A stretch of 64,000 nt of DNA from a virus (Duplodnaviria; Caudoviricetes): the IMG/VR virus record IMGVR_UViG_3300022752_000016, one strand, 5' to 3'. The number at the start of each line of letters is the position of its first letter. The stretch's first letter is position 1. Of the stretch, positions 10,199-32,997 are shown piece after piece. A model generated the notes under the pieces. The model searched no databases, was not told the DNA's origin, and was given only the letters and a program-made list of their open reading frames with translations. A program made the translations under genes and the position numbers.

Positions 10199-10240
10199 TA
10201 AAGATTGTTTAAATATTACAAGAGATTTATAAATAATTTT

Positions 10241-14782: not shown

Positions 14783-15799
14783 ATGGCAAGTTTAGCAGAT
14801 ATCCGCGCAAGAATCGCAGCGCAAGAAAACAAAACACAAAAAGGTCAAATCACGACCGACAACGCAGTATATCCTCACTGGAATATGGAAGAAGGTACAG
14901 TTGCTACTATTCGTTTCCTACCAGATGCAGATTCAAACAATACGTTCTTTTGGGTAGAACGTCAAATCATCAAGCTTCCCTTCAATGGGCTTAAGGGTGA
15001 TCCTAATGTAAAACAAATTACTGTACAAGTACCTTGTGCTGAGATGTATGGCGATACTTGCCCAGTACTAACTGAAGTTCGTCCTTGGTATAAAGATGAA
15101 ACACTAAAAGAAATGGCAAATAAATATTGGAAAAAGCGTAGTTATCTATTCCAAGCTTTTGTTCGTCAAAATCCAATTGGTGATGATAAGACACCAGCTA
15201 ATCCAATTCGTAGACTTGTGATAAGTCCACAGATTTTCACAATTATCAAATCAAGTTTGATGGATCCTGAAATGGAAGAATTACCCACTGATTATGTACG
15301 TGGGTTGGATTTTAATATTAAGAAAACTAGTAAAGGTGGTTATGCTGATTATTCAACAAGTAACTGGGCACGTAAAGAAAGTCCATTGACTGAAGCAGAG
15401 CAAGCAGCAATTGAAGCACATGGATTATTTAATCTAGCAGATTTCTTACCAAAGCGTCCTAATGAAGCAGAATTGAATATTATTAAAGAAATGTTTGAAG
15501 CTTCGGTAGATGGGCAACCTTATGACAATGATCGTTGGGGTTCGTATTATCGTCCCTTTGGAGTTGATGCTCCGCAACATCAGGTAGATAGTGATAGCGA
15601 AACTGTTACAGAAAAGAAAGTATCAGTTTCAGTTTCAAAGCCTGCTGTTTCGAAGCCTGATGTTAAAGAAGAAACTGCTCCATGGGAAGATGAACCAGCT
15701 GAGGCAAGTCAACCTGTTAATATTCCAAAGTCAACATCAAGTGATAAGGCACAAGATATTTTAGCAATGATTCGTGCCCGTCAAAACAAGACAGCCTAA
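14783..15799 (+). CDS. ssb: Single-stranded DNA-binding protein, T4 gp32-like
   Basis: A.IRFLPD, C...G..CPV, YWKKRSYLFQ, G.DF.IKK..KGGYADYS.S motifs; acidic linker; C-terminal ILAMIRAR. Confidence 0.9.
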   Translation: MASLADIRARIAAQENKTQKGQITTDNAVYPHWNMEEGTVATIRFLPDADSNNTFFWVERQIIKLPFNGLKGDPNVKQITVQVPCAEMYGDTCPVLTEVRPWYKDETLKEMANKYWKKRSYLFQAFVRQNPIGDDKTPANPIRRLVISPQIFTIIKSSLMDPEMEELPTDYVRGLDFNIKKTSKGGYADYSTSNWARKESPLTEAEQAAIEAHGLFNLADFLPKRPNEAELNIIKEMFEASVDGQPYDNDRWGSYYRPFGVDAPQHQVDSDSETVTEKKVSVSVSKPAVSKPDVKEETAPWEDEPAEASQPVNIPKSTSSDKAQDILAMIRARQNKTA

Positions 15800-16093: not shown

Positions 16094-17161
16094 TTGGGGA
16101 AACCGTTCGATGTTAGTAAATTTAGAAAAGATATTACCAAGTCCATTGAGGGACTTAGTATCGGGTTTAACGATCCAACAGATTGGATTAGTACAGGAAA
16201 TCACGCACTTAATTATCTCATTAGTGGTGATTTTAATAAAGGCGTACCTCTTGGTAAAGTTACTGTCTTTGCCGGAGAGTCAGGATCAGGAAAAAGTTAT
16301 ATCTGTGCAGGAAATCTCGTCCGTCACGCACAACAACAAGGGATCTTTGTCGTATTGGTCGATACTGAAAATGCGCTTGATGAAGATTGGTTACATAACT
16401 TGGGAGTTGATACGTCAGAAGAAAAACTATTAAAACTTAATATGGCAATGATTGATGATGTTGCCAAAACTATTAGCGAGTTTATGAAAGGATATCGCAC
16501 TATTCCTAGTGAAGATCGTCCTAAAGTACTTTTTATTATTGATAGCTTAGGAATGTTACTTACTCCTACTGATGTTAATCAATTTGAAGGCGGTGATTTA
16601 AAAGGTGATATGGGTCGTAAACCAAAAGCACTAACCGCACTAGTACGTAATTGTGTAAATATGTTTGGTAGTCACAATGTTGGATTGGTAGCTACAAATC
16701 ATACCTACGCAAGTCAGGATATGTTTGATCCTGACGATAAAATCTCAGGTGGGCAAGGCTTTATCTATGCAAGTTCAATTGTTGTAGCAATGAAAAAATT
16801 GAAACTTAAAGAAGATGAAGATGGTAATAAAACAAGTGAAGTCCTTGGTATTCGTAGTGCTTGTAAAGTAATGAAAACACGTTATGCTAAACCTTTTGAA
16901 AGTGTACAAGTAAAGATTCCATATAGTACAGGAATGAATCCATATAGTGGGTTGTTAGATTTATTTGAAAAATCAGGGCTGCTTGTAAAAGAAGGCAATC
17001 GTTTAAGCTACACTACGTTAGATGGTGAAGTTATCAAACATTTCCGTAAAGGTTGGGAAACTAATACTGATAATTGTTTAGATACGGTTATGAGTGAGTA
17101 TAGTAAAAGAAACGAAAATAAACTAAGTAATGTAACAACTGAGGAGGAAGTTACAGAATGA
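16094..17161 (+). CDS. uvsX: RecA/UvsX-like recombinase (TTG start)
   Basis: ISTG...LNYLISG, Walker A GESGSGKS, VDTENALD, IIDSLG, SGGQGFIYASS and KTRY.KPF; RBS AAGGAG. Confidence 0.93.
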   Translation: MGKPFDVSKFRKDITKSIEGLSIGFNDPTDWISTGNHALNYLISGDFNKGVPLGKVTVFAGESGSGKSYICAGNLVRHAQQQGIFVVLVDTENALDEDWLHNLGVDTSEEKLLKLNMAMIDDVAKTISEFMKGYRTIPSEDRPKVLFIIDSLGMLLTPTDVNQFEGGDLKGDMGRKPKALTALVRNCVNMFGSHNVGLVATNHTYASQDMFDPDDKISGGQGFIYASSIVVAMKKLKLKEDEDGNKTSEVLGIRSACKVMKTRYAKPFESVQVKIPYSTGMNPYSGLLDLFEKSGLLVKEGNRLSYTTLDGEVIKHFRKGWETNTDNCLDTVMSEYSKRNENKLSNVTTEEEVTE

Positions 17162-17407: not shown

Positions 17408-17866
17408 GTGAGTTGGTATTCACAGATAACAGGTGACTTATCTGTTATCCCTGATTTTATTACGCACTATGAGTCTGAGTTAAACTCAGCCAAAAAAGAT
17501 GTAAAAATATTTGGTAATGTTGAAAAGAACATTTCAGCATTACCTGGTATTACTGAACATCGTTTTAATCAACTACAAGAAATTGAAGCAGTATTAAATT
17601 TCTTAAATGTACAGCTAAGAAAAATTCGCCGAAAACATTTTCAAAAATATCTTGAGGCGTATAATAGAGTTTTAACAAGTCGTGATGCTGAAAAATATGT
17701 TGATGGGGAGGGTGAAGTTATTGACTTTGAGACAATCATCAATGATGTAGCATTGTTAAGAAACAAGTGGTTGGGCGTAATGAAAGGTCTAGATAGTAAA
17801 AACTTTATGCTAGGTCATATTGTAAGATTACGTTCAGCTGGTATGGAAGATATAACCGTAAGTTAA
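17408..17866 (+). CDS. uvsY: UvsY-like recombination mediator (GTG start)
   Basis: Helical protein with YLE.Y.R.L.SRDAEKYVDGE and LRSAGMED, typical of UvsY; near uvsX. Confidence 0.75.
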   Translation: MSWYSQITGDLSVIPDFITHYESELNSAKKDVKIFGNVEKNISALPGITEHRFNQLQEIEAVLNFLNVQLRKIRRKHFQKYLEAYNRVLTSRDAEKYVDGEGEVIDFETIINDVALLRNKWLGVMKGLDSKNFMLGHIVRLRSAGMEDITVS

Positions 17867-17874
17867 GGAATAGT

Positions 17875-18585
17875 ATGGCTAAGATTCAAAATCTTTTTAA
17901 TGATATATTAAATGATACAATATCTGAGGGGACGAATAATATATATATTACAGATTATCCATTATTAGTATTAAGTGCATGTAATTACAGGTTAAAACAA
18001 GAAGATCCTGAATTTAATTCTAATTCTTTACTAGGCAATATTATTATAAATCATGTAACAGATATTGATATAGAGTTTGCAAATAAAATTGGTGACTACT
18101 ATAGTAAAAAATTAATGTTACTTAAATTAAAAGGTAAAGAGTTGACAAAGTTTCGCAAAGAATTAATTACTTTTTTACATGACAATTTTAACCATCAAGA
18201 TGGTAGGTACCATACCCCTGAGAAATTTGCAGGTATGGCTTATAAATTACCTTATTTTTACACATATGACACAACATTAGATATGTTATTTGATTTGAAA
18301 AGTATTCCATATAAGCCTTTTAAAGGTGTTAAGCAATTAAAGTTTGTTACAAAACTTTTTACATCAAGAAAACATTGGGGAAATATTATAGAATATTGGT
18401 TTGTAGATATTGACAATAATAAATATCTTTTAGACTTTAACAAAGAAAATATGTTATGTAGTTTATTAGAAAAGGTAATTGAAAAAAATCAAATTATAGT
18501 ATCAGGTGTATTTGGTGTAAATAGGAAAGACTATGAGTTTTTTGTACCAAGCAAATATACAATGGACTTCAAAAATATTATTTAA
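17875..18585 (+). CDS. Hypothetical protein
   Basis: 236-aa ORF with RBS AAGGA. Confidence 0.75.
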   Translation: MAKIQNLFNDILNDTISEGTNNIYITDYPLLVLSACNYRLKQEDPEFNSNSLLGNIIINHVTDIDIEFANKIGDYYSKKLMLLKLKGKELTKFRKELITFLHDNFNHQDGRYHTPEKFAGMAYKLPYFYTYDTTLDMLFDLKSIPYKPFKGVKQLKFVTKLFTSRKHWGNIIEYWFVDIDNNKYLLDFNKENMLCSLLEKVIEKNQIIVSGVFGVNRKDYEFFVPSKYTMDFKNII

Positions 18586-19336
18586 ATTTTTTGTTATCTT
18601 TATCAACTGCTTTAAATAAAGAAATATTAAGCCCCAATTGTTTAGTAAGTTTATTAAAACTTTTCACATCTTTAGGAAGACAGGTTCCACCGTATCCACG
18701 TAAATTTTTATTCACTTCTAAATAATCAGAAGTGGGTGTTCCTCTCAAAATATATGTGTCTTTTATTTTGCTATAATTTGAATTTAATTTTTTACAAATT
18801 TCATACATGCTATTAGCAAAAACTATTTTGGTAGCATTGTATACATTGGAATAATATTTTAGTATTTCTGCCTCAGTTGGTGTAAGACTTACTATGTTTT
18901 TTGGTAAGAACCCATGGCTGGCAACAATTTTTTTAAAAATTTCTTTTCTATGACACCCAATGGCAAGTAAATTGTGATTTATTATAAAATCTTTTTCAGC
19001 ATGAACTTCACGTAAAAATTCAGGAACAAAACAAATATTTAAATTGGTTTCTTTTATTAATTTTTCTGTAGTACCAGGTACTAAGGTAGACTTAATAGCT
19101 ATTATTCCATCAAAGGATATTTTTTGTAAATCTTTTAAAACATTTTTAATTATTTTGTCTGTATACTTATTACCTTTATGTGTAGGAACACAAATATAAA
19201 TAATTTCTGTTTTTTTTAAGGATTTAATATCAGTTTTGTATTTAATATCATGTACAATAACTTTATGACCTAGTAATGTGAAACCTTGTTTACATGCATT
19301 ACCTACAACACCAGCACCTATTATACCAATTTTCAT
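18578..19336 (-). CDS. ugd: UDP-glucose/GDP-mannose 6-dehydrogenase family protein, short form (NAD-binding plus central domain only)
   Basis: IGIIGAGVVG Rossmann motif, ICVPT, IKST..PGTT, PEFLRE, AE..KY.SN and catalytic GYGGTCLPKD. Confidence 0.85.
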   Translation of the reverse strand: MKIGIIGAGVVGNACKQGFTLLGHKVIVHDIKYKTDIKSLKKTEIIYICVPTHKGNKYTDKIIKNVLKDLQKISFDGIIAIKSTLVPGTTEKLIKETNLNICFVPEFLREVHAEKDFIINHNLLAIGCHRKEIFKKIVASHGFLPKNIVSLTPTEAEILKYYSNVYNATKIVFANSMYEICKKLNSNYSKIKDTYILRGTPTSDYLEVNKNLRGYGGTCLPKDVKSFNKLTKQLGLNISLFKAVDKDNKKFK

Positions 19337-20211
19337 AATGAGTCCAAAGTTAACTTTATCCCTTGTTCTAATGAAATTTTAGGTTTAAAATTAATTATTT
19401 TTTTTAGTTTGTTAGTATCACACAACCGTCTTGATACACTTCCAATAGGAGCATTATTAAGAATAAGATTTTTATTTATTTTTGCATATCTACAAATTAG
19501 TTCTGCAACTTCTTTAATTGTTCTTTCGTCACTGACCCCTATATTTATAATTTCATTATTACAATTTTGAGTTTCTAGAATATTTACAGTGGCATCAACA
19601 GCATCACTTACATACATAAAACTTCTTGTATTAGAGTGTCCGTACAAATTTAAATCTCCTTTTTTAATTCTGCCATAAAACTCTGGTATAAAGTGATTAA
19701 TTTGTCTTGGTCCATAAACATTATGATACCTCAATATAATAAAGTTTTGTTTTGTTTGATGATATGCAGCATTTACTTGTACCTCATTAGCAATTTTGCT
19801 AGCAGCATAGCTCCAGCGTGGATTAGTTACATCACTTATTGATAAAGGAACTTGTTCGTCTGTAGGAATTTTATAATTAAATGTATCAATTGTGCCTGCA
19901 TAGGTTTCACAGCTACTTGAAAATATAAATTTTTCTATCTTACCTGCATATCTATCAAGTAAATATTGAGTTGGCAATAAATTATTTCTAATTACATCAA
20001 AAGGACGCTGGTAAAAAAATTTGGTACCATTTAATGCTGCTAAATGCACAACAATTTCAACATCGGGTAAATTCTTAACATTTTCCCAATTAGATAAATC
20101 AAGACCTGTTTTAATATCTGCCTTGTGTAAATTATATCCTAAATTTTCTAATTTGTCACACAGATGACTTCCAATGAATCCACAACTGCCTGTAACTAAA
20201 ATTGATTTCAT
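19333..20211 (-). CDS. NAD-dependent nucleotide-sugar epimerase/dehydratase (extended SDR)
   Basis: ILVTGSCGFIGSHL, HLAA, FSSS, YAASK (YxxxK), RYHNVYGPR and RSF.YV.D motifs. Confidence 0.92.
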   Translation of the reverse strand: MKSILVTGSCGFIGSHLCDKLENLGYNLHKADIKTGLDLSNWENVKNLPDVEIVVHLAALNGTKFFYQRPFDVIRNNLLPTQYLLDRYAGKIEKFIFSSSCETYAGTIDTFNYKIPTDEQVPLSISDVTNPRWSYAASKIANEVQVNAAYHQTKQNFIILRYHNVYGPRQINHFIPEFYGRIKKGDLNLYGHSNTRSFMYVSDAVDATVNILETQNCNNEIINIGVSDERTIKEVAELICRYAKINKNLILNNAPIGSVSRRLCDTNKLKKIINFKPKISLEQGIKLTLDSL

Positions 20212-20256
20212 ATATAAATTATTTATAAATATAAATCGACGCTTTAAATAAGTGTA

Positions 20257-20892
20257 ATGAAACCTAAGATAAAAATATTTTTAAATCATCCTGAGTGTAG
20301 TATAGAGTGTGGTGCAGGAATGTACCATGCTCTTAATAAAGATTTTCGTATAGACTTTTTTACAAAAGACGATATTAAACCCAAATTATTTAGAAACTTA
20401 GAAATTATTGCCTTCCCTGGCGGTATTGGTGATAGTGATAAATTTGATAAAATTCTTAAACACAACCAAGATTACATTATTGAATTTGTAAAAAATAATG
20501 GAAGATACTTAGGTATTTGTATGGGTGCTTATTGGGCGGGTAGTCATTATTTTAATATACTTAAAAATGTAGAACCTGTACAATATATTAAAAGACCTAG
20601 GGCAAATATTAAAAGAAGTTACGGTACCACAACAAAAATAAATTGGCTAGGTAACGAACATAAAATGTATTTTTATGATGGCTGTGCATTGATTGGCAAT
20701 GAAAGTAAATTTAAAGTAATAGCAAGATATAGTAATAAAGATCCAATGGCTATCATTCAGAAAAACATTGGGTTAATAGGTTGTCATCCTGAAAGTATGC
20801 CAACTTGGTATAATAAAAAATATCTTTCAGATAAATGGCACAATTACCATCATCATTATTTGTTATTAGACTTCACAAAACGATTATTGTAA
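20257..20892 (+). CDS. Class I glutamine-amidotransferase-like protein (BPL_N family)
   Basis: FPGG, nucleophile elbow YLGICMGAY, and H-P-E triad motif GCHPE. Confidence 0.75.
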   Translation: MKPKIKIFLNHPECSIECGAGMYHALNKDFRIDFFTKDDIKPKLFRNLEIIAFPGGIGDSDKFDKILKHNQDYIIEFVKNNGRYLGICMGAYWAGSHYFNILKNVEPVQYIKRPRANIKRSYGTTTKINWLGNEHKMYFYDGCALIGNESKFKVIARYSNKDPMAIIQKNIGLIGCHPESMPTWYNKKYLSDKWHNYHHHYLLLDFTKRLL

Positions 20893-20920
20893 TACTTTTG
20901 TAATAATAATATGATAGTAT
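20887..20920 (+). promoter_or_regulatory. Pho-box-like 11-nt-periodic repeat TTGTAAT-ACTT-TTGTAAT, then a -10-like TAGTAT 10 nt later, upstream of phoX-pstS
   Basis: Half-sites 20887-20893 and 20898-20904, TAGTAT 20915-20920. This matches the PhoB-box geometry (CTGTCAT-N4-CTGTCAT, about 10 bp before the -10). Confidence 0.65.
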
Positions 20921-20951
20921 ATATGTAAATACGACAACATATAAAAGGAGA

Positions 20952-23168
20952 ATGCGTATGTTACAACAAGTAGTACAAGAAGAAAACACTTCTAACAATG
21001 AGCATATTAATGACATTGTAAATCAAATATTACAAGATCCCAAACGCCGAACTTTTTTAAAAACAGGTTCGGCGTTTTTAACTGCTGCCACAGGCGCAAC
21101 TTTAGCAGGTTGTGCTAGTGGAGATGACACCTTAACTGTGTCACATCTCAATTTTCCTGCTGTAGCTAAAAATATAGCAGATAAAATTACATTACCACCA
21201 GGTTATCAATATTCAATAGTACATGCTACCGGAGATAGACTGACTAGTAGTGTAGGTGCTTATACCAATAAAGGAACTGAAACTGATGATTGGTCTAACA
21301 GAGTAGGTGACCATCATGATGGTGTAGAATTATTTCACCTAGATAGTGCAGGTAAACGTACAAATCAAATGACTGATCGTGCTTTATTAGTTATGAATCA
21401 TGAAAGTTCAGCAGACGCACACTTCTTTCACCCAAATGGACAAACCAGTAATGGAACTACCGGCAAAAAGTACGACCAATTTGGAAGTTGGGATTTAGGG
21501 GTTCGTCCTGGACTTGAAGCATTAAAAGAAATAAATCATCACGGCGTTAGTGTTGTTGAAATTAATAAGAGTAGCAATGGTTGGTCTTATAAATTAGATA
21601 GCGGGTTTAATAGACGTATTACTCCTCAAACAGTAATGAAAATTGCTGGACCTGTTAATGAACTTAGTAACATTAAAGCATTATTAGCAACCAAATATGA
21701 TCCAACAGGTGCTACAAGTCGTGGTACATTAAACAATTGTGGTACAGGCATTACACCATGGGGTACTTTCTTAACATGCGAAGAAAATTGGGCTACCTAT
21801 TTCGCTATGCCTAAAGGTAGCGTTGCTCCAGATGCACGTATGGCGCAGAGCCGTGCTAGATATGGTGTTCGTAACGCAGCTATTGCCGATACTGCCACAA
21901 CAAGTAATACACAAGGATGGCACACTGTAACCGACATGCCCGATACCGCACAAAGATTTAGTCGTTGGGATGTAAGTGTAAAGGGAGCTACAGACAAAGA
22001 TGATTTTCGTAATGAACCACATACGTTTGGTTACATCGTAGAAATTGATCCAACTAACCCAACAAGTCAACCAGTAAAGCGTATTGCTTTAGGTCGTACA
22101 GCACATGAAGCAGCAGTATATGGAAAATTAGTTGCAGGTCAACCAGTAACTTTTTACATGGGATGTGACAGTCGAAATGAGTATATCTATAAGTGGGTAA
22201 GTAATCAACCATGGAATCCAGCCGATGCTAACGGTGGTTTGGCAGCAGGTGACAAATATTTAAATGATGGCAAACTGTACGCAGCTAAATTTAATAATGA
22301 TGGAACTGGTGTATGGTTAGAATTAAGCATTACAAATCCTCTTATTGCAGGATATTCAACTTTTGTATTTAAAAACCAAGCTGAAGTTTATGTTTTTACT
22401 AGACTTGCTGCTGACGCAGTTGGTGCCACCAAAATGGATCGCCCAGAATGGGGTGCTGTAAATCCTGCTAATGGTGAAGTGTATTTTGCTTTAACAAATA
22501 ATAGTTCTGCAAATCGTACGCCTTCTACAGTTAATGCAGCTAACCCACGTAGTTATGCTGATCCAGATGGCAAAAAAGGTTCAGGCAATCCTAATGGGCA
22601 CATTATTCGTTGGCGTGAAGAAACTAGTGGATTTAAGTGGGATATTTTCTTATTTGGTTCAGAAGAGGATAATTCTCAAAGTAATGTCAGCAAACTGACT
22701 GCCAATAATAGTTTTAGTAGCCCAGATGGATTATGGTTTAGTCGTGCTACTGGCTTATGCTGGATTCAAACTGACGATGGTGCATATACTGATGAAGTTC
22801 ATAATCAATTACTTGTTGCTATCCCTGGTAAAGTTGGCGATGGTCAGGCAATTACAGTCAATAACAGTCTAAGTGGTGCTACTGGCACACAAGCAACATT
22901 TGTTGGTGCTGAATTAGGGGAAACTAAATTACGTAGATTCATGACTGGTCCTGCTGGTTGCGAAATTACTGGTATTACTGAATCAGCAGATGGTCGTGCT
23001 ATCTTTGTAAATGTTCAGCATCCTGGCGAAGATACTTCGGCAGCATTTTGGACAGGAGGAGCGCCACAAAGTCAATGGCCAGGTAATGCTAATTATGGGA
23101 TAACTGGTCGTCCTCGCTCAGCCACAATTTGTATTACAAGGGTTGACGGAGGCCTAATAGGCGTATAA
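20952..23168 (+). CDS. phoX: PhoX-family alkaline phosphatase (DUF839), Tat-exported lipoprotein
   Basis: Tat motif KRRTFLK, lipobox LAGC, GDHHDG, MNHE, GTLNNCG.G.TPWGTFLTCEEN, LGRTAHEA, MDRPEW, SPDGL, WIQTD, CEITG and NVQHPGE. Confidence 0.93.
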   Translation: MRMLQQVVQEENTSNNEHINDIVNQILQDPKRRTFLKTGSAFLTAATGATLAGCASGDDTLTVSHLNFPAVAKNIADKITLPPGYQYSIVHATGDRLTSSVGAYTNKGTETDDWSNRVGDHHDGVELFHLDSAGKRTNQMTDRALLVMNHESSADAHFFHPNGQTSNGTTGKKYDQFGSWDLGVRPGLEALKEINHHGVSVVEINKSSNGWSYKLDSGFNRRITPQTVMKIAGPVNELSNIKALLATKYDPTGATSRGTLNNCGTGITPWGTFLTCEENWATYFAMPKGSVAPDARMAQSRARYGVRNAAIADTATTSNTQGWHTVTDMPDTAQRFSRWDVSVKGATDKDDFRNEPHTFGYIVEIDPTNPTSQPVKRIALGRTAHEAAVYGKLVAGQPVTFYMGCDSRNEYIYKWVSNQPWNPADANGGLAAGDKYLNDGKLYAAKFNNDGTGVWLELSITNPLIAGYSTFVFKNQAEVYVFTRLAADAVGATKMDRPEWGAVNPANGEVYFALTNNSSANRTPSTVNAANPRSYADPDGKKGSGNPNGHIIRWREETSGFKWDIFLFGSEEDNSQSNVSKLTANNSFSSPDGLWFSRATGLCWIQTDDGAYTDEVHNQLLVAIPGKVGDGQAITVNNSLSGATGTQATFVGAELGETKLRRFMTGPAGCEITGITESADGRAIFVNVQHPGEDTSAAFWTGGAPQSQWPGNANYGITGRPRSATICITRVDGGLIGV

Positions 23169-23196
23169 AATATCAATCACACACAAAGGAAAAACA

Positions 23197-24201
23197 ATGA
23201 AAAAATTTATATTGGCTCTTGCGACCATATTTTTCGCAATTTCAGCACAGGCACAAATTACAGGTGCAGGTGCTACATTCCCTTATCCGATCTATGCTAA
23301 ATGGGCAGAAGCCTATCAAAAGCAAACAAGCGTCGGTCTTAATTATCAAAGCATTGGTAGTTCGGGGGGAATCCGTCAAATTAATGCCAAGACTGTAACA
23401 TTTGGAGCAACAGATGCGCCAGTTAAAGGTGAAGACCTTGATAAGAACGGTCAAGTTCAATTTCCTGTTATCATTGGCGGTACTGTGCCCGTTATTAATC
23501 TTGACGGTTTTAAGCCAAGTGAACTTCGCATTACAGGTGCTGTCTTGGCAGAAGTTTTTATGGGAAACATTGTTAAATGGAATGATCCGAAATTATCACA
23601 ATTAAACCCAGGTAAAAATTTACCTGATCTTAATATAACGGTAGTGCATCGTGCTGATGGTTCTGGTACAACATTTAATTTTACTGATTATCTAACTGAA
23701 GTAAGTCCTGCTTGGAAGGACAAGGTTGGTAAAGGTGCAGCAGTTAAATGGCCTGCTAATAGTTCTGTTGGTGGAAAAGGTAACGAAGGTGTTGCAGCTA
23801 ATGTTAATAGAGTTAAAGGTGCAATTGGATATGTTGAATATGCTTATGTTAAAAAGAATAACATGAATTATATGAAACTACAAAACAAAGCAGGTAACTT
23901 TGTTGACCCTGATGATACAACATTTGCTGCCGCAGCAGCAGGTGCAGATTGGTTCTCAGTTCCAGGAATGGGATTGAGTATTGTAAATCAAGGCGGCAAA
24001 GATACTTGGCCCATAACAACAGCTAGCTTTATTATAATGCATAAAGATCCTGCTGATAAAAAGGCTAGCCAAGAAGTCATCAAGTTCTTTGACTGGGCAT
24101 TTAGGAATGGTGCCAAAATGAGTGCGGATCTTGATTATGTTCATTTACCAGAGAAATTACAGAATGAAATACGTACAAAAGTATGGACTCAAATTAAGTA
24201 A
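23197..24201 (+). CDS. pstS: Phosphate ABC transporter substrate-binding protein PstS
   Basis: Signal peptide, ITGAGATFP.P.Y.KWA, YQSIGS.GG, FGA.DAP, VHRADGSGTTFNFT.YL, GKGNEGV, IGYVEYAY and WPIT.ASF. Confidence 0.97.
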   Translation: MKKFILALATIFFAISAQAQITGAGATFPYPIYAKWAEAYQKQTSVGLNYQSIGSSGGIRQINAKTVTFGATDAPVKGEDLDKNGQVQFPVIIGGTVPVINLDGFKPSELRITGAVLAEVFMGNIVKWNDPKLSQLNPGKNLPDLNITVVHRADGSGTTFNFTDYLTEVSPAWKDKVGKGAAVKWPANSSVGGKGNEGVAANVNRVKGAIGYVEYAYVKKNNMNYMKLQNKAGNFVDPDDTTFAAAAAGADWFSVPGMGLSIVNQGGKDTWPITTASFIIMHKDPADKKASQEVIKFFDWAFRNGAKMSADLDYVHLPEKLQNEIRTKVWTQIK

Positions 24202-24218
24202 TGTAATAATACTGTAAA
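24201..24218 (+). promoter_or_regulatory. Second Pho-box-like repeat ATGTAAT-AATA-CTGTAAA upstream of the plcP/agt unit
   Basis: Half-sites 24201-24207 and 24212-24218 with 11-nt period; the -10 candidate TAAATT (24231) is less well placed. Confidence 0.5.
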
Positions 24219-24245
24219 CTAATCAAAAGTTAAATTTTGTAAATA

Positions 24246-24274
24246 GTTATAGAGAATCACAAATTCTCTATAAC
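24246..24274 (+). other. 12-bp perfect hairpin with CACAA loop, upstream of the RBS of gene 24295
   Basis: GTTATAGAGAAT-CACAA-ATTCTCTATAAC. Confidence 0.8.
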
Positions 24275-24294
24275 CCACATCAAGGAGTCACAAA

Positions 24295-24519
24295 ATGAAA
24301 CTAGAAATGAGAGCTTGGGATTTAGACGTAAAATTAGAATTACAGGATGATGATGCAGTAGACCAATTACAAGTTTTGGAAGTTGTTAAAAATTTATTAG
24401 ACACACTTTCACAATTTGAAAAAGTCAATGTAGTAATTAAACAAATTGAAGAAACAACAGAAGAATTAGATAATAATTCTGATAACGTTGAAGCAATTAC
24501 TCATACAACAGGTTACTAA
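24295..24519 (+). CDS. Small acidic hypothetical protein
   Basis: RBS AAGGAG; 74 aa. Confidence 0.75.
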   Translation: MKLEMRAWDLDVKLELQDDDAVDQLQVLEVVKNLLDTLSQFEKVNVVIKQIEETTEELDNNSDNVEAITHTTGY

Positions 24520-24535
24520 AAGGTCCCCCAATGAA

Positions 24536-25306
24536 ATGGTTTATAATGCTATCTTTATATCAGATGTACACTTGGGCACAAAAGGATGTAAAGCCGAAGA
24601 ATTAATTAATTTTTTGAAAAACAACACCGCTTCAAAGTTATATCTTATAGGTGATATATTAGACGGCTGGAAAATACAACAAAATAAATGGGTCTGGAAA
24701 CAGACCCATTCCAATGTAATCCGTAGAATTTTAGGTCATGCTAAAAATGGTACAGAAGTTTTCTATGCTATAGGAAATCATGATGAATTTATACGTCCTT
24801 TACTTCCATATAAGATAAGTTTTGGCAAAATTAAACTTGCTAATCAGTTTACACATAATGGTATAGATGGGAAGAAATATTTAGTTGTTCACGGAGATTT
24901 ATTTGATGGAATAACAAGGCTCGCTCCTTGGATTAGTTTTTTGGGGGATAGAGCCTATGACATGCTTCTTTCACTTAATACCACATTTAATCGTATTCGC
25001 CATCGTTTTGGGTTCGGCTATTGGAGTCTTAGCAAATATCTTAAGCACAGAGTCAAACGGGCTATGGATTTTATGTTTAGATTTGAGAATAATATGGCTG
25101 ATTATTGTATTAAGCGTGGGTATGATGGAGTTATATGTGGTCATATACATTATGCCGAAATTAAAACAATAAAGGGTATAACATATATGAATGATGGTGA
25201 TTGGGTAGAAAGTTGTAGCGCACTAGTAGAAAATGTCAATGGAAGTTGGGAAATTATATATTGGACAAAAAAGCAAGATGTGGATATTGTTCCTAGTGGT
25301 AGTTAA
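24536..25306 (+). CDS. plcP: PlcP-like calcineurin-type metallophosphoesterase (phospholipase C of lipid remodelling; often auto-annotated as LpxH); track start 24488, ATG 24536 preferred
   Basis: IFISDVHLGT.GC.A, LYL.GDI.DGW, GNHDEF, YLV.HGDLFD, W+.FLGD.AYD, N..FNR.R...G..YWSLS, GVICGHIH, YMN.GDWVESC.A+VE. The extended motif set matches my recollection of Sinorhizobium/SAR11 PlcP, and the gene sits next to a GT4. Confidence 0.75.
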   Translation: MVYNAIFISDVHLGTKGCKAEELINFLKNNTASKLYLIGDILDGWKIQQNKWVWKQTHSNVIRRILGHAKNGTEVFYAIGNHDEFIRPLLPYKISFGKIKLANQFTHNGIDGKKYLVVHGDLFDGITRLAPWISFLGDRAYDMLLSLNTTFNRIRHRFGFGYWSLSKYLKHRVKRAMDFMFRFENNMADYCIKRGYDGVICGHIHYAEIKTIKGITYMNDGDWVESCSALVENVNGSWEIIYWTKKQDVDIVPSGS

Positions 25307-25463
25307 TACATTTGATACGAATGATGTACCTGGTAGAATCCAATTACAGTTTAAGGATCAACAAAGTTGTGAATTCGCACTGGCTAATATGACAAGTTAT
25401 GTTAAATTTCCTTGGTTTAAAGTAGAGGGTAAATGTGAAAAAAATATTAATAATAACAGATAA
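25278..25463 (+). CDS. Small exported/membrane phage protein (MWILFLVVV...SCE...KCEK) between plcP and agt
   Basis: ATG 25278 in the frame of the 76-aa track ORF; hydrophobic N-terminus and two Cys. Confidence 0.6.
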   Translation: MWILFLVVVNTFDTNDVPGRIQLQFKDQQSCEFALANMTSYVKFPWFKVEGKCEKNINNNR

Positions 25464-26430
25464 TTTACAGGATCAAATAAATGGTGTGGTTACCACTTAC
25501 AAAAATCTTGAAGCGTGTGCGGTTCGTGACAACTATAACATTGTTTATATTACTCCCGATGAGTTCCGCCACTTTGATTGCCCTATCTATAACGAAGTCA
25601 AGATTGCCTTTCCGAGGAAAATGGGCGAGAAGATTGAGGAGATATCTCCACATCATATCCACATCGCCACAGAAGGTCCTGTGGGTCTGTGGGCTAGAGC
25701 ATATCTTACAAAACATAATTATAATTACAATACTGCTTATCATACTAAATTTCCTGAAGGATTACATACCTTGGTTGGACTTCCTGAGTCTATTACTTGG
25801 CGCTATATAAAATGGTTTCATAAACATACAGGAAAAGTTCTTACAACCACTAATTCTATGGTTGAACAATTACAACAAAAAGGATTAAAAAATCTTGTAC
25901 CATGGACTAGAGGTGTTGATAGAGAAATATTTTCTTCTAAATTACGAACAAAAACAGCGGAAAAACTTAATCTTGTCTGTGTAAGTCGAATTAGTAAAGA
26001 AAAAAACTTAGACGATTTTTGTAGTATCGATTATTTTCATGCACATAAAATAATGGTAGGTGATGGTCCTTATCGTAGGGAATTAGAAAAGAAATATCCT
26101 AACGTAGAATTTGTAGGATTTAAAACAGGAGTAGAATTGGCTACATATTTTGCAAACGCCGATGTATTTGTTTTTCCAAGTCGTTGGGAAACATTTGGTA
26201 TCGTTATGATTGAGGCTATGGCGTGTGGTACACCTGTTGCGGCATATCCCTGTCAAGGACCACTGGATGTTGTAGATCATGGGATAACAGGGTTCTTACG
26301 AGATAATCTTAAACAGGCTATTACAGAATGTTTAACATTAGATAGGTATACAGTTGAAAAGCATAGTTTAAAATACAGCTGGGATAAAGCTTGGGAAATT
26401 TTTAAAAATAATTTAATACCATTAAAGTAA
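25435..26430 (+). CDS. agt: GT4 glycosyltransferase, Agt-like diacylglycerol glycosyl/glucuronosyl transferase
   Basis: ILI.TD...Q+NGVV.T, CP.Y.E+++, HIHIATEGP+GL, T.YHT+FPE, WTRGVD, VSR+S.EKNL, VGDGP, DVFVFPS..ETFG+V..EAMACGTPVAAYP. Confidence 0.75.
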   Translation: MKKILIITDNLQDQINGVVTTYKNLEACAVRDNYNIVYITPDEFRHFDCPIYNEVKIAFPRKMGEKIEEISPHHIHIATEGPVGLWARAYLTKHNYNYNTAYHTKFPEGLHTLVGLPESITWRYIKWFHKHTGKVLTTTNSMVEQLQQKGLKNLVPWTRGVDREIFSSKLRTKTAEKLNLVCVSRISKEKNLDDFCSIDYFHAHKIMVGDGPYRRELEKKYPNVEFVGFKTGVELATYFANADVFVFPSRWETFGIVMIEAMACGTPVAAYPCQGPLDVVDHGITGFLRDNLKQAITECLTLDRYTVEKHSLKYSWDKAWEIFKNNLIPLK

Positions 26431-26467: not shown

Positions 26468-26496
26468 TTGACTTTCTAATATAAATATTGTACAAT
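26468..26496 (+). promoter_or_regulatory. sigma70-type promoter TTGACT-N17-TACAAT upstream of ahpC
   Basis: TTGACT 26468-26473, TG extension, TACAAT 26491-26496. Confidence 0.65.
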
Positions 26497-26517
26497 TACA
26501 CACACAAGGAGAAAACT

Positions 26518-27111
26518 ATGAAAACAGTTGGAGATGTACTTAAGCCTTTCGCAATGACAGGCGTAAAACCAGGAGCGTTAACCTTAGATAATGCTTTTGA
26601 AACAATCACAGAAAAATCTTTTGAAGGTAAGTGGAAAGTAATCGTTTACTATCCTAAAGATTTTACTTTTGTATGCCCCACAGAAATTGTAGCATATGAT
26701 AAACTTAACAGTGACTTTGCTGACCGTGATGCTGTATTATTAATTGGTAGCACAGATAATGAGTTTTGTAAATTAGCATGGCGTAATGCACATGAAGATT
26801 TGAAAAAAACTAATAGCTGGATGTTTGCTGATACAGCAAGAGAAGCAGATGAGAGTTATAACGTTGAAAGTGATAAATGGGAGCATAAGCTTCCAGAAGG
26901 TTTAGCTCAACAACTTGGTATTTTTTACAAACCTGCAGGAGCAGCATTAAGAGCTACATTTATTGTTGATCCTAATAATGTTATTCAACATGTTACTGTA
27001 AACAATTTAGATGTTGGTCGTAACCCAGATGAAACACTACGCATTTTAGATGCACTACAAACTGGTGAACTTTGCCCATGTAGTCGTCCAATAGGCGGTG
27101 AAACACTTTAA
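26518..27111 (+). CDS. ahpC: Peroxiredoxin AhpC (2-Cys); ATG 26518 after RBS AAGGAG preferred to 26488
   Basis: YPKDFTFVCPTE peroxidatic motif, RATFIVDP, VGRN.DETLR.LDALQ and resolving GELCPC. Confidence 0.95.
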   Translation: MKTVGDVLKPFAMTGVKPGALTLDNAFETITEKSFEGKWKVIVYYPKDFTFVCPTEIVAYDKLNSDFADRDAVLLIGSTDNEFCKLAWRNAHEDLKKTNSWMFADTAREADESYNVESDKWEHKLPEGLAQQLGIFYKPAGAALRATFIVDPNNVIQHVTVNNLDVGRNPDETLRILDALQTGELCPCSRPIGGETL

Positions 27112-27278
27112 TGTTTAAGTATGAAACTCTTTGGGATTTTTACAAAGTAAAATTTTTATTTCTTTTAATTTCTTTTGTAGTAGCAATAATTTTATCAAAC
27201 TATTTGTATAACCATGATAAAGATAAAAAGATGATTGAGTTTCATAAAACATTTATTAAAAAATATTATGGAGAATGA
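27111..27278 (+). CDS. 55-aa single-TM protein between ahpC and ahpD (MFKYETLWDFYKVKFLFLLISFVVAIILSNYLY...)
   Basis: ATG overlaps the ahpC TAA; TGA at 27276-27278; not in the ORF track. Confidence 0.55.
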   Translation: MFKYETLWDFYKVKFLFLLISFVVAIILSNYLYNHDKDKKMIEFHKTFIKKYYGE

Positions 27279-27279
27279 G

Positions 27280-27795
27280 TTGAACTGGATAGATCAAATT
27301 AAAGCAAGCATTCCTGAACATTGTAAGGATAATAAACTTAACCTTGATAGTGTAATGAACCGTAGTGGTTTGGATGAGATAGATGCTCATGGGTGTGCGT
27401 TAGCCGCAGCGATATCTGCAGGCAATGGAGAATTAGCTTATGACATTCAATTAAATGGTCCTTTAAAAGGCACTAAAGAATCTGAGGCAGCAAAAACGGC
27501 AGCAGCGTTAATGGGTATTAATAATGTATTTTATCCATTTATTGAAATGTGTAATGATCCTGATTTAAAAGGATTGCCACCTGGATTGCGTATGAATGCT
27601 TATGCTAACCATGGCGGAGTCAGTAAAAAGCAATTTGAAATGTATGCGTTAGCAGCAAGTATTGTTGGTAAATGTCATTTTTGTGTAAAAAATCATTATG
27701 ACACATTAAAGAAAGAAGGTCTTACCGTTCAGCAATTACAAGCAATCGGTAAGATTGCTAGTGTAATTGCTAGTATTAATAAGATAGCAGTATAA
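27280..27795 (+). CDS. ahpD: Alkylhydroperoxidase AhpD; probable TTG start 27280 (MNWIDQIK...) after GGAG, track start 27235
   Basis: IPEH.KD.KLNL, AA.LMG.NNVFYPF, LRMN, FEMY.LAAS..GKCHFCV..H (CxxC plus His). Confidence 0.9.
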   Translation: MNWIDQIKASIPEHCKDNKLNLDSVMNRSGLDEIDAHGCALAAAISAGNGELAYDIQLNGPLKGTKESEAAKTAAALMGINNVFYPFIEMCNDPDLKGLPPGLRMNAYANHGGVSKKQFEMYALAASIVGKCHFCVKNHYDTLKKEGLTVQQLQAIGKIASVIASINKIAV

Positions 27796-27933: not shown

Positions 27934-28611
27934 TCAAATTATATACCAATTACTTGAACCGCTATAAATCAAATGAACTGCTTGCCATGGAACTTCTATA
28001 ATATATTGTGTTTCACCATCAATAAATGATCCATCACTAGTGGTTATTGTAATTTTTCGATTACCTAAAGGTGGACCCATTTCAGCTTTTATAATAATTT
28101 CATCACAACCTGAAGGATTTGGGGGAAGTGTAACAGTAACCGGTCCATCACTATTAACGCCAATATAATAATCATCCATCGTAGCAGTGTAGTCTTGGTA
28201 AACCAAAACAGCTTGGCATTTGCAATCACACTGCCCAGGCGGTCCAATAGGTCCTGGAGGCCCTTGTTCACCAGGAGGGCCTGGCTCTCCAGCAGGTCCA
28301 GTCGAGCCTTGTGGGCCCTCAGGTCCAGGTGGTCCTGGTGGACCTTGTTCTCCAATTGGTCCAGGCGGACCTTCAGGACCTTGGGGTCCTGCTGGGCCTG
28401 GTGGTCCAGGGGGGCATTCATCGCATGGATCTCCTTTATCATTATTATTAATTACAATAGTATCATTACCTGGGCCAGTATTAATTGGAATTCTTCCGCC
28501 TGCTAATTGTAATTGAGCATGTTGTAACAGTTTTGGGTCTACTGGTTTACCCATACTCATAGTTAATAATGCCTGTTGCAATTCTACTAATCTTCTATCA
28601 TGTCCGTCCAT
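27934..28611 (-). CDS. Collagen-like (Gly-X-Y) protein with Cys-rich flanks and C-terminal beta-rich fibre-type domain
   Basis: About 20 GXY triplets between CDEC and CDCKC; C-terminal YYIGV...TVTLP...IDG...W domain. Confidence 0.88.
28225..28415 (-). repeat. Collagen GXY repeat tract, locally GC-rich
   Basis: Repeated GGA/GGT/GGC-CCN codons on the minus strand; boundaries approximate. Confidence 0.85.
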
Positions 28612-29399: not shown

Positions 29400-30110
29400 T
29401 TATGTTTCCAAAGAATTTGCAAACACTGCGAGTTGTGTTCTATTTCTTAACCCATATTTGCGTAATATTGCACCCATGTGTAGTTTTACAGTGCTTTCAG
29501 CAATTTTTAATGTCTTTGCTATAACTTTATTAGTAGCACCACGTTTTGCTACCATTGTAAACACTTGTTTTTGCCTTGGCGTTAACTCTACTTCTGTACT
29601 TTTTTCTTTTTTTGATTTGCGTTTTAACATGTTTTGTATTGGTTTAGGTGTGCTTAAATCACCCGAAACTAATTTTATTTGATCCTCTACTAACATATCC
29701 ATTGTAAACTTATCACACATACTCATTTGTAAACCATCAACTAATTTGCTAATTTCTTTAATATCACTTATTTTTGACTCACTATTGGCACAGGCTAAAA
29801 TCTTAGTAGTTCGCTTTTTGGTTTTATCTTCATCAATAAACAATGTAGATATTGCTAAAATTTTCAATGTATTAATTAAAGCAATTGGGTCCCCGTGTTC
29901 AAAATTACTCAATTCATCAACATCAATAAGAATATAATCAACATCAAATTTTGGATCACTTAATTTTGGAAAAAGTGACTCAATATTTGGATAACTGCAA
30001 TAAGACGCATTGGGAATTTTTTCCTTTGCTAAAGGTATCCAAACATCGTAAAACATTCTGTCAGGATATTTGCCATTATTTACATAAACAATTTTTGTAG
30101 TATGGGGCAT
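29400..30110 (-). CDS. LuxR/NarL-family transcription regulator (C-terminal HTH, atypical receiver-like N-terminus)
   Basis: LTPRQKQVF..V..G.TNK.IA..L.IAESTVK.HM..I..K.G.RNRTQ is a classic LuxR HTH. Confidence 0.9.
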   Translation of the reverse strand: MPHTTKIVYVNNGKYPDRMFYDVWIPLAKEKIPNASYCSYPNIESLFPKLSDPKFDVDYILIDVDELSNFEHGDPIALINTLKILAISTLFIDEDKTKKRTTKILACANSESKISDIKEISKLVDGLQMSMCDKFTMDMLVEDQIKLVSGDLSTPKPIQNMLKRKSKKEKSTEVELTPRQKQVFTMVAKRGATNKVIAKTLKIAESTVKLHMGAILRKYGLRNRTQLAVFANSLET

Positions 30111-31959: not shown

Positions 31960-32997
31960 ATGAAATCCTACAAGAATAAAGAGGAAATACTTGTCCAATT
32001 TCTAACCTTAGAGCTAAGACTAAACAAGTATGATAACAAGTTCATAAGTAATTTGGCAATGTTATTGTCTAAAAACAGATATGTAACAACTAATCAAAAC
32101 AACCTTTTTAACAAACTACTAGTGAAATACAAAAGACAATTATCCAAACATAAAATTAACGTTGATGAAGTTCTACAATTAGAATGGAATACTAAAGTCA
32201 TTGAAAGTTTACCTGAATTTACAGAGGCTCATCTTTCAATCGAGAATGATAAGCTCAAGTTAAGGTTACCCTTTAACAAAAAACTAATTGAAAACTTACG
32301 ACAAGTAGAGCCTTATTTTAATATAACTTGGAACGTCACAAAGAAATGTTATTATTCTAATTTCTGTACTGATATACTTAAAATAATTATTAACATAATT
32401 CCACATTATTATAAACTTAATCTTTCAGGTGAAATTAAACAATATTTACATGTATTAAATGATTACAATGATTGCAAATATTGGGACCCAACTTTAATTA
32501 AGCAACCTTCAGGCTACTATATTGTGGCTGCCAATCAATATTTACTTAATGCTATTGAACATATAACCCTTAATAATGAACCACAAACATTGGTTGAACT
32601 AAGCAAACATGCTATAATTATTGCTCCCGAGATAACAACTAATGATGATTTTTTAAAGTTTTGTGCAACATATGATGTTAAAATGGAACTTGACAAGTTA
32701 CCATTATTACATGATTATTGTAGTATATTGAAAATTAAAAACATTATTTGTAATTACCGTATTGCAAGAATAAGAGAAGTAAGAAACGAAATCGAAAAAG
32801 TGTTTGGTACAACCTATAACATTTACTATGAGAAATCAATCAACAATATTACAATGCCACATAATAAAAAAAGTTACCATGGTAAAACAATTGGTTTATA
32901 TTATGGTAGTGCAAATGTAGCTATTGATTTAGTACGGTATTACCCAATTGAAAAAATAATAAACATAGTTAACAATAGACCTGTTAATATTAAATGA
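31960..32997 (+). CDS. Hypothetical protein
   Basis: 345-aa ORF coupled to the helicase start. Confidence 0.75.
   Translation: MKSYKNKEEILVQFLTLELRLNKYDNKFISNLAMLLSKNRYVTTNQNNLFNKLLVKYKRQLSKHKINVDEVLQLEWNTKVIESLPEFTEAHLSIENDKLKLRLPFNKKLIENLRQVEPYFNITWNVTKKCYYSNFCTDILKIIINIIPHYYKLNLSGEIKQYLHVLNDYNDCKYWDPTLIKQPSGYYIVAANQYLLNAIEHITLNNEPQTLVELSKHAIIIAPEITTNDDFLKFCATYDVKMELDKLPLLHDYCSILKIKNIICNYRIARIREVRNEIEKVFGTTYNIYYEKSINNITMPHNKKSYHGKTIGLYYGSANVAIDLVRYYPIEKIINIVNNRPVNIK

Follow-up and report, generated by a model that had tools for sequence, protein, structure and literature searches.

Where waters are poor in phosphate, the phosphorus needed for DNA is believed to set a limit on phage production, and the known phage answers to this limitation are uptake genes (such as pstS and phoA). 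Can a phage also draw on the phosphorus that is held in the membrane lipids of its host? This question is raised by a T4-like jumbo myovirus from lake metagenomes, in which an alkaline phosphatase gene (phoX), a phosphate-binding-protein gene (pstS), a metallophosphoesterase gene (the esterase) and a family 4 glycosyltransferase gene (GT4) stand side by side. The stretch analysed here, referred to as the window, is 64 kb in length and corresponds to bases 64001-128000 of the 137,248-bp IMG/VR virus record IMGVR_UViG_3300022752_000016 (CheckV completeness of around 40%). We conclude, with a probability of roughly two in three, that in this block the phage carries its own version of the bacterial phosphate-starvation response, organized as two units that each lie behind a Pho-box-like site. 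Unit 1 consists of phoX and pstS. Unit 2 consists of a small gene (orf74), the esterase, an open reading frame (ORF) of around 55 amino acids and the GT4, and is probably a translationally coupled operon that descended from an alphaproteobacterial plcP–agt operon.

The original prediction, made from the letters of the window, had described phoX, pstS, a metallophosphoesterase and a GT4 as one co-oriented block that starts at position 20887. All four genes are indeed on the plus strand (Table 1), and this start coincides with the first of the two Pho-box-like repeats. Absent from that description were orf74, the ~55-amino-acid ORF, the second Pho-box-like site and the GT4 motif FPSRWETFG. The bacterial system with which unit 2 is compared includes PlcP of Sinorhizobium meliloti (SMc00171), Phaeobacter (MED193_17359) and SAR11 (PB7211_983), and Agt of Agrobacterium tumefaciens (Atu2297) and SAR11 (GTcp, PB7211_960) (PMC4796936, PMC8231724).

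Table 1 Positions of the phosphate-starvation block and of other phage features in the window
Feature	Position	Strand	Detail
TerL	10205-11794		Phage core gene, upstream of block
gp32-like single-stranded-DNA-binding protein	14783-15799		Phage core gene, upstream of block
UvsX	16094-17161		Phage core gene, upstream of block
UvsY-like	17408-17866		Phage core gene, upstream of block
Class-I glutamine-amidotransferase-like / BPL_N-like protein	20257-20892	+	Pfam PF09825, PF00117; directly upstream of phoX promoter
Pho-box-like direct repeat 1	20888-20904	+	TGTAAT-N5-TGTAAT; 11-bp period; 48 nt upstream of phoX ATG
phoX, alkaline phosphatase	20952-23168	+	Pfam PF05787, E 1.6e-122
pstS, periplasmic phosphate-binding protein	23197-24201	+	NCBIfam equivalog NF008171; PHROG 5385
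Pho-box-like repeat 2	24202-24218	+	TGTAAT-N5-TGTAAA; directly after pstS stop; 77 nt upstream of orf74
Perfect 10-bp inverted repeat (hairpin)	24249-24273	+	Between second Pho-box-like site and orf74
orf74, small acidic protein	24295-24519	+	ORF list, 74 amino acids; first gene of putative lipid operon
PlcP-like Mn-type metallophosphoesterase, putative phospholipase C	24536-25306	+	Pfam Metallophos PF00149
Phage-specific ~55-amino-acid ORF	25296-25463	+	61 amino acids if ATG 25278 is the start; overlaps esterase stop and GT4 start
Agt-like GT4, putative diacylglycerol glycosyltransferase, viral Trp-Glu variant	25435-26430	+	GTG start; Pfam Glycos_transf_1, Glyco_transf_4
AhpC-like peroxiredoxin	26488-27111	+	Pfam AhpC-TSA; NCBIfam AhpC match under cut-off
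AhpD-like alkylhydroperoxidase	27235-27795	+	Pfam CMD; NCBIfam AhpD match under cut-off
Collagen-like tail-fibre gene	27934-28611		Downstream of block
UvsW-like helicase	32994-34448		Downstream of block
gp41-like helicase	40751-42157		Downstream of block

The identity of the esterase is central to the question. Its ATG start is backed by an alignment (A1) of 34 viral and cellular homologues in which the metal ligands (D10, H12, D40, N81, H82, H119, H203 and H205) are invariant; the active site is intact. Neither the esterase nor the GT4 has a Sec or Tat export signal. The esterase fails both equivalog models of the UDP-2,3-diacylglucosamine diphosphatase LpxH, with 46 bits for NF003743 (cut-off of 134) and 40 bits for TIGR01854 (cut-off of 190), and a sequence search of the PDB matched LpxH structures only at E ~1e-3. 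The motif GNHD is present in 162 of the 163 compiled esterases (the window and 161 homologues account for all that carry it), the exception being the Escherichia coli LpxH outgroup, which has GNRD. The arginine of this LpxH motif contacts the substrate phosphate.

We evaluated distribution and gene order using an IMG/VR scan for the esterase, which identified at least 599 contigs; the viral loci analysed are the best 80 of these, with esterases of 68-86% identity and contigs of 191-367 kb among them. The GT4 is directly downstream of the esterase in 44 loci, within 4 kb in 9 and absent from the fetched flank in 21, and could not be assessed in 6. In a tree of 132 esterases (SH-aLRT supports, one LpxH outgroup), in which the viral set is compared with unvalidated homologues, the viral sequences form a single clade (support of 97). 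Its sister (support of 87) is a clade of 33 alphaproteobacterial and related esterases (support of 100); in 30 of them the next gene downstream is a GT4. The next group outward consists of Hyphomonadaceae esterases without a GT4, and E. coli LpxH is on a branch of length 10. A previous study of PlcP, which used a BLASTP E value of <1e-40 to Phaeobacter MED193 PlcP as its criterion, defined a 'type 2' context in which a gene for a non-phosphorus lipid (agt) is directly downstream of plcP (PMC4796936). The window shows this context, with a GT4 in the place of agt, as do 33 cellular loci and 44 of the 74 viral loci that could be assessed. Together, these results support a PlcP-like enzyme that is apart from LpxH, with phospholipase C as its putative activity.

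The competing view is that the genes encode LpxH and a lipopolysaccharide (LPS) glycosyltransferase, with lipid A or LPS as their target, as automatic annotation and the auxiliary metabolic gene (AMG) tables of virome studies would have it. Database names for the two proteins ('UDP-2,3-diacylglucosamine diphosphatase' and 'glycosyltransferase involved in cell wall biosynthesis') point this way, and viral 'lpxH' was placed under LPS biosynthesis in studies of surface oligotrophic seawater and of the Lake Baikal viral metatranscriptome (PMC10653327, PMC9611531). Structure prediction (AlphaFold2, pLDDT of 82) gives the esterase an LpxH-like calcineurin-type fold with a helical insert, and LpxH structures are its best structural matches in both the PDB and Swiss-Prot, at an identity of 16-22% to LpxH overall and of 18-20% to the solved LpxH structures. 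The shared fold is set against the failed models, the replacement of GNRD by GNHD, the low identity and the distance in the tree; furthermore, the closest cellular relatives are alphaproteobacterial and adjoin Agt-type GT4s, and the esterase is linked to Pho boxes, pstS and phoX. We consider the LPS explanation to be very unlikely, and suspect that the viral 'lpxH' of these two studies belongs to the same family as the window esterase.

The second enzyme of the putative operon, the GT4, is 331 amino acids in length and has the motifs SRISKEKN, FPSRWETFG, HIATEGPVG and YHTKFPE. Its AlphaFold2 model (pLDDT of 92.9) consists of two Rossmann-like halves, and its GT-B fold, family and size are those of Agt. 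Enzymes of the Agt/GTcp clade have around 334 residues, a catalytic His104-Asp256 dyad and the motifs GRVAxEKN and FPSxTDTFG; mutagenesis of GTcp defined a set of residues whose change abolishes activity, with Arg190 and Lys195 assigned to UDP binding and Thr162, Arg163 and Trp320 to the coordination of diacylglycerol (PMC8231724). The window GT4 keeps 13 of 14 residues that this mutagenesis showed to be important: G17, G81, G84, H103, T158, R159, R185, K190, T253, F254, G255, E260 and W316 match in order and spacing, a correspondence that was drawn by order and offset, and all except T158 are invariant in a 35-sequence alignment (A2) that is itself without GTcp. Within this set, H103, T158, R159 and W316 (in WTRGVDR) correspond to GTcp His104, Thr162, Arg163 and Trp320. 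The counterpart of GRVAxEKN is SRISKEKN, in which R185, E189 and K190 are invariant and the leading glycine is replaced by serine in most viral copies. The nearest reviewed folds in Swiss-Prot are MgtA, Arabidopsis SQD2 (27% identity), PimB/C and the monoglucosyl-diacylglycerol synthases of Streptococcus pneumoniae and Acholeplasma laidlawii.

The departure is in the other motif. The window has FPSRWETFG, with glutamate in place of the GTcp Asp256, and this Trp-Glu form (FPSxWETFG) is shared by 45 viral homologues; the aspartate is kept in 7 viral and in 32 of 32 cellular sequences. All 32 of the analysed cellular GT4s that adjoin an esterase carry FPSxTDTFG and are thus of the published Agt/GTcp kind. 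In the GT4 tree, the viral sequences form one clade in which the basal lines retain aspartate and the Trp-Glu variants are a single derived subclade (support of 98); the E. coli WaaG and WaaB outgroups are on branches of length 10 and give no useful rooting. Descent of the GT4 from Agt is therefore supported by motifs and tree, and diacylglycerol would be its expected acceptor. The original prediction had set the esterase apart from LpxH and beside enzymes of the plcP–agt type, and both statements hold up: the first through the failed equivalog models, GNHD and the long LpxH branch, the second through the sister clade with its downstream Agt-like GT4s. Each of the possible refutations named with the prediction that can be checked in silico turned out in its favour.

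Wedged between the two enzymes is the ~55-amino-acid ORF, which is probably translationally coupled to both, as its reading frame overlaps the end of the esterase gene and the beginning of the GT4 gene. Of the 80 viral loci, 46 contain this ORF, and it is missing from all 80 cellular loci examined; it accompanies the esterase even where the GT4 is displaced or missing. The frame is open in 40 of 40 unique DNAs, whereas the other two frames have around 4-5 stops each; differences at third codon positions are 1.75-fold those at positions 1-2, and seven residues, two of them cysteines, are invariant (alignment A3). An independent gene caller also predicts the ORF, on other contigs. A complex prediction for the esterase and this ORF scored 0.00 with an uncertain fold for the partner and counts neither way. 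In the closest viral loci, orf74 has counterparts of 63-76% identity at the equivalent position. Neither small protein matched a family in Pfam or PHROGs, and family searches of the ESM Atlas gave only 'LpxH family' names. The hairpin upstream of orf74, which is replaced in relatives by a hairpin of another sequence, could be the pstS terminator or a regulatory element.

Unit 2 thus resembles the bacterial PlcP–Agt system in having a non-LpxH metallophosphoesterase followed immediately by a GT4 of around 330 amino acids, with Pho-box-like sites upstream; in the Gly-rich motif, R..EKN, the FPS....FG frame and the diacylglycerol-binding histidine, Thr-Arg and tryptophan of the GT4; and in that its closest cellular relatives are alphaproteobacterial pairs in the same arrangement. 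It differs in being phage-encoded and falling into viral clades of its own, in the conserved ORF between the two genes, in FPSxWETFG instead of FPSxTDTFG with its catalytic aspartate, and in a first motif that reads SR(I/V)SKEKN in viruses instead of GRVAxEKN.

Both proteins of unit 1 carry export signals. PhoX begins with a Tat-type RRTFLK signal followed by a lipobox-like LAGC, and PstS, which exceeds the cut-off of NF008171 (397.6 versus 339 bits), has a Sec signal peptide with AQA at its end. Copies of PhoX that are 75-81% identical occupy the equivalent position in nine viral loci; PhoX and PstS together are upstream of the esterase in 9 of the 80 loci, and PstS is present in 14. These are auxiliary genes of the Pho-regulon type on a bona fide phage. 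Marine cyanomyoviruses carry pstS and phoA under host PhoB/Pho-box control, and the window shares with them host-derived Pho-regulon genes on a T4-like phage, a pstS with a signal peptide, a phosphatase that adjoins it and Pho-box-like promoter elements. By contrast, its phosphatase is PhoX and not PhoA, its PstS is of the proteobacterial type (51-52% identity to enterobacterial PstS versus 36-38% to cyanophage PstS) and it adds a membrane-lipid module, which is absent from the cultured cyanophages searched with the exception of a lone esterase in Synechococcus phage S-SRM01.

Each of the two units has a putative regulatory site. The pattern TGTAAY-N5-TGTAAH has the 11-bp-period layout of the proteobacterial Pho box, with A replacing C, and matches the window exactly twice (0.32 matches expected), both times at fitting intergenic places. 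Site 1 overlaps the -35 position of a candidate promoter from a promoter scan (TTGTAA, a 17-nt spacer and TATGAT at 20910-20915). A Pho box that overlaps the -35 element, with a -10 element downstream, is the usual layout of PhoB-activated promoters. Site 1 is conserved upstream of phoX in nine related viral loci, and in related loci sites homologous to site 2 precede orf74 or the esterase. A slightly relaxed pattern gave 59 matches in 1.95 Mb of the 80 viral loci, and for 39 of these the start of phoX, pstS, orf74 or the esterase is no more than 200 nt downstream; some are canonical (TGTCAC-N5-TGTCAT). The resulting enrichment of around 40-fold is good but not independent evidence, and overstates its independence because the pattern was derived from these same, mutually related loci. 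Among the cellular homologues, five of nine matches to the same motif are upstream, in agreement with the Pho boxes that have been reported for plcP clusters (PMC4796936). We infer that PhoB would control both units through these Pho-box-like sites.

These conclusions require that the block is part of the phage. The alternative is that host DNA was mis-assembled into a viral contig, a thought prompted by the cellular origin of the genes and by close copies on two contigs of metagenome-assembled genomes (MAGs). Lake and freshwater metagenomes from six or more studies contain near-identical DNA (63-98% of sampled 31-mers), and contigs from four runs of four studies were compared with the window. 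Exact contigs tile the block; one contig of 8,241 bp, from a variant strain in a different study, spans 22638-26415 (the end of phoX, pstS, orf74, the esterase and the GT4); and another contig connects the upstream phage gene with phoX. An independent IMG/VR contig (L082) has the matching order of gp32, UvsX, PhoX, PstS, orf74, esterase and GT4. Given that contigs from other studies span the junctions and that L082 keeps the combined order of phage and block genes, we reject the chimera, to which we assign a negligible chance. Phage core genes flank the block on both sides, the GC content of the block is in line with that of the rest of the window, and the two MAG contigs are short and nested in the viral clade. 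The contig is therefore viral across the block, as the original prediction had presumed.

The esterases of the two MAG contigs, assigned to Fischerella (L002, 11 kb) and Competibacteraceae (L037, 2.6 kb), fall inside the viral clade; both contigs are probably phage DNA that was mis-binned into bacterial MAGs.

How might the two units work during infection? In a phosphate-starved host, active PhoB would turn on both. Through unit 1, PhoX and PstS would reach the host periplasm as a phosphatase and a phosphate-binding protein of high affinity, and would scavenge external phosphorus. In the cytoplasm, the PlcP-like enzyme would release a phosphorylated head group from membrane phospholipids and leave diacylglycerol behind; the phosphorus of the head group would go into nucleotides for the phage genome, which is at least 205 kb in length. 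The Agt-like enzyme would glycosylate the diacylglycerol to a phosphorus-free glycolipid, so that the membrane would hold until lysis. Phospholipid phosphorus has been measured at 0.27-0.54 million atoms per Phaeobacter cell and at 1.7-2.6 million per Dokdonia cell (PMC4796936), and a double-stranded DNA genome of 205 kb contains, by our calculation, around 0.41 million phosphorus atoms; the lipid pool would therefore correspond to roughly one to six genomes of this phage. A gain of phosphorus from the module is thus plausible on the basis of gene content and this estimate. We regard as evenly balanced the stronger proposal that phages in lakes poor in phosphate carry a PhoB-wired, three-protein operon for lipid renovation (PlcP, its ~55-amino-acid partner and a re-tuned Agt) that turns host phospholipid into DNA phosphorus while the cell stays intact.

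The pair may make glycolipid from phospholipid and yet have been selected for a changed envelope—a block to superinfection, or a stabilized or altered membrane—rather than for phosphorus. Lipid changes under phosphate starvation alter phage adsorption in Caulobacter (PMC6445935), a modification of the host surface that counters co-infection has been suggested for glycosyltransferases of pelagimyophages (PMC7029224), and the active-site motif of the phage GT4 is altered. Because the module is found together with phoX and pstS, and downstream of Pho-box-like sites, it is linked to phosphate status and not to the stage of infection. In addition, monoglucosyldiacylglycerol (MGDG) and glucuronic acid diacylglycerol (GADG) are inner-membrane lipids in known systems and are therefore not obvious receptors. 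An envelope benefit in place of phosphorus appears unlikely to us, and the two benefits are compatible with each other.

Several points weigh against the interpretation of the block as a phosphate-starvation response with a PlcP–Agt module, beyond the shared ancestry of the loci behind the motif enrichment. Site 2 has no clear sigma-70 -10 hexamer at the expected spacing in the promoter scan, and there is no RNA run among the runs listed as holding the stretch. The case for orthology to PlcP and Agt is built on published motifs, on the arrangement of the operon and on trees in which the homologues are unvalidated; these are 'quick'-mode trees, and their outgroup branches are long. In 21 viral loci the esterase has no GT4 in the fetched flank. 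Finally, the GT4 has glutamate at the position of GTcp Asp256, and when this aspartate was changed to glutamate in GTcp (D256E), more than 90% of the activity was lost (PMC8231724). The specificity for donor or acceptor may therefore have shifted, and the phage GT4 may use another donor or acceptor.

The last two points lead to a further alternative, in which the esterase frees phosphate-bearing head groups and the Trp-Glu GT4, perhaps with the small ORF, makes a non-classical product from another donor or acceptor. Consistent with this are the fixation of both the Asp-to-Glu and the Thr-to-Trp change in one viral clade, the crippling effect of D256E and the coupling of a phage-only ORF to the pair. 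The GT4 has nevertheless kept the diacylglycerol-binding residues of GTcp (histidine, Thr-Arg and tryptophan) and the UDP pocket, and its nearest folds are lipid glycosyltransferases. Moreover, glutamate is the canonical residue of the GT4 EX7E motif at this position, so the enzyme is likely to be active. We consider a non-classical product improbable, and retain the phosphate-starvation response with an Agt-like last step as the preferred reading.

No description of phage-encoded plcP or agt, or of lipid remodelling as a phage auxiliary function, was found in the open-access literature searched, and a survey of pelagimyophages makes no mention of a phage PlcP–Agt pair; the impression that such a pair was uncharacterized is in agreement with these searches. 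Two cultured phages have a lone esterase homologue, Pelagibacter phage Mosig EXVC030M (48.5% identity) and S-SRM01 (36%), and no Agt-like GT4 was found in either genome. The Mosig gene (Mosig_00120; MT647606.1, 93031-94866) is annotated as UDP-2,3-diacylglucosamine hydrolase, adjoins pstS divergently and is outside the main viral clade of the esterase tree. Both phages thus resemble the window in having a homologous esterase that is annotated as LpxH, next to pstS in Mosig, and differ from it in that the esterase is alone and in that no link to lipid remodelling is made in either record or in the two pelagimyophage papers checked. Mosig is a tractable isolate in which a phage PlcP can be tested.

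What appears to be new here is a known bacterial pathway that is carried by phages, is apparently wired to Pho boxes, includes a phage-only small protein and has a changed catalytic residue. The module is no curiosity, given the number of IMG/VR contigs with the esterase and the thousands of close homologues, metagenome proteins among them, that both the esterase and the GT4 have in a large protein database. If the proposed function holds true, the mining of host phospholipids would be a new kind of phage auxiliary metabolism, and membrane lipid a hitherto uncounted reservoir of phosphorus for viral production. Infection would then be linked to membrane lipid composition and to the glycolipid markers of phosphorus stress. 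It would also follow that the 'lpxH' of virome surveys is mis-assigned and that AMG tables probably count a PlcP-like gene as LPS biosynthesis. The phage-only ORF and the Asp-to-Glu switch would offer handles on substrate choice by diacylglycerol glycosyltransferases.

Some neighbouring genes may belong to the module. Homologues of the glutamine-amidotransferase-like/BPL_N-like protein that precedes the phoX promoter (40-58% identity) are near the esterase in 20 of the 80 viral loci, and this protein may be associated with the module. Directly after the GT4, the AhpC-like and AhpD-like pair, with homologues near the esterase in 9 and 7 of the 80 loci, respectively, may be a phage-borne defence against (lipid) hydroperoxides.

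A 1.7-kb segment (18560-20257) upstream of the block contains two minus-strand genes, one for a UDP-glucose-dehydrogenase-like protein (18578-19336) and one for an NAD-dependent sugar epimerase/dehydratase (19333-20211). This segment is a strain-variable insertion: it is missing in variant strains of two other studies, which have 19 nt in its place. The UDP-glucose-dehydrogenase-like protein (252 amino acids) has the catalytic motif GGTCLPKD and is without the C-terminal UDP-binding domain. We considered this gene as a source of UDP-glucuronic acid for GADG and rejected it; the missing domain and the absence from variant strains place it outside the conserved module.

The GT4 protein of the window is found identically on a contig of 205,163 bp in length, which identifies the virus as a jumbo phage. 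The nearest relatives of its TerL (42-52% identity) are those of jumbo phages of Pseudomonas (PA5oct), Sinorhizobium, Agrobacterium, Vibrio and Cronobacter. The phage also encodes a permuted (two-piece) transfer-messenger RNA (tmRNA), 5.8 kb before the window (G000:C1:57682-58223; locus L165, 714-1133), with 114.9 bits for the Rfam model tmRNA_permuted (gathering score of 47) and an ARAGORN tag of ANDDYFYQDLKLAA. The best lineage model for this tmRNA is beta_tmRNA (61.9 bits, under the threshold of 84), which is a possible clue to the host. The host cannot be named from the TerL neighbours, the proteobacterial-type PstS, the tmRNA lineage model or the MAG labels; 'Caulobacteraceae', 'Fischerella' and 'Competibacteraceae' were rejected as host labels because they belong to phage-like or very short MAG contigs. 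Around 3 kb downstream of the putative lipid operon, on the opposite strand (29400-30110), is a gene for a 236-amino-acid protein with a C-terminal LuxR/GerE, sigma-70 region-4-like helix–turn–helix, a possible phage transcription factor.

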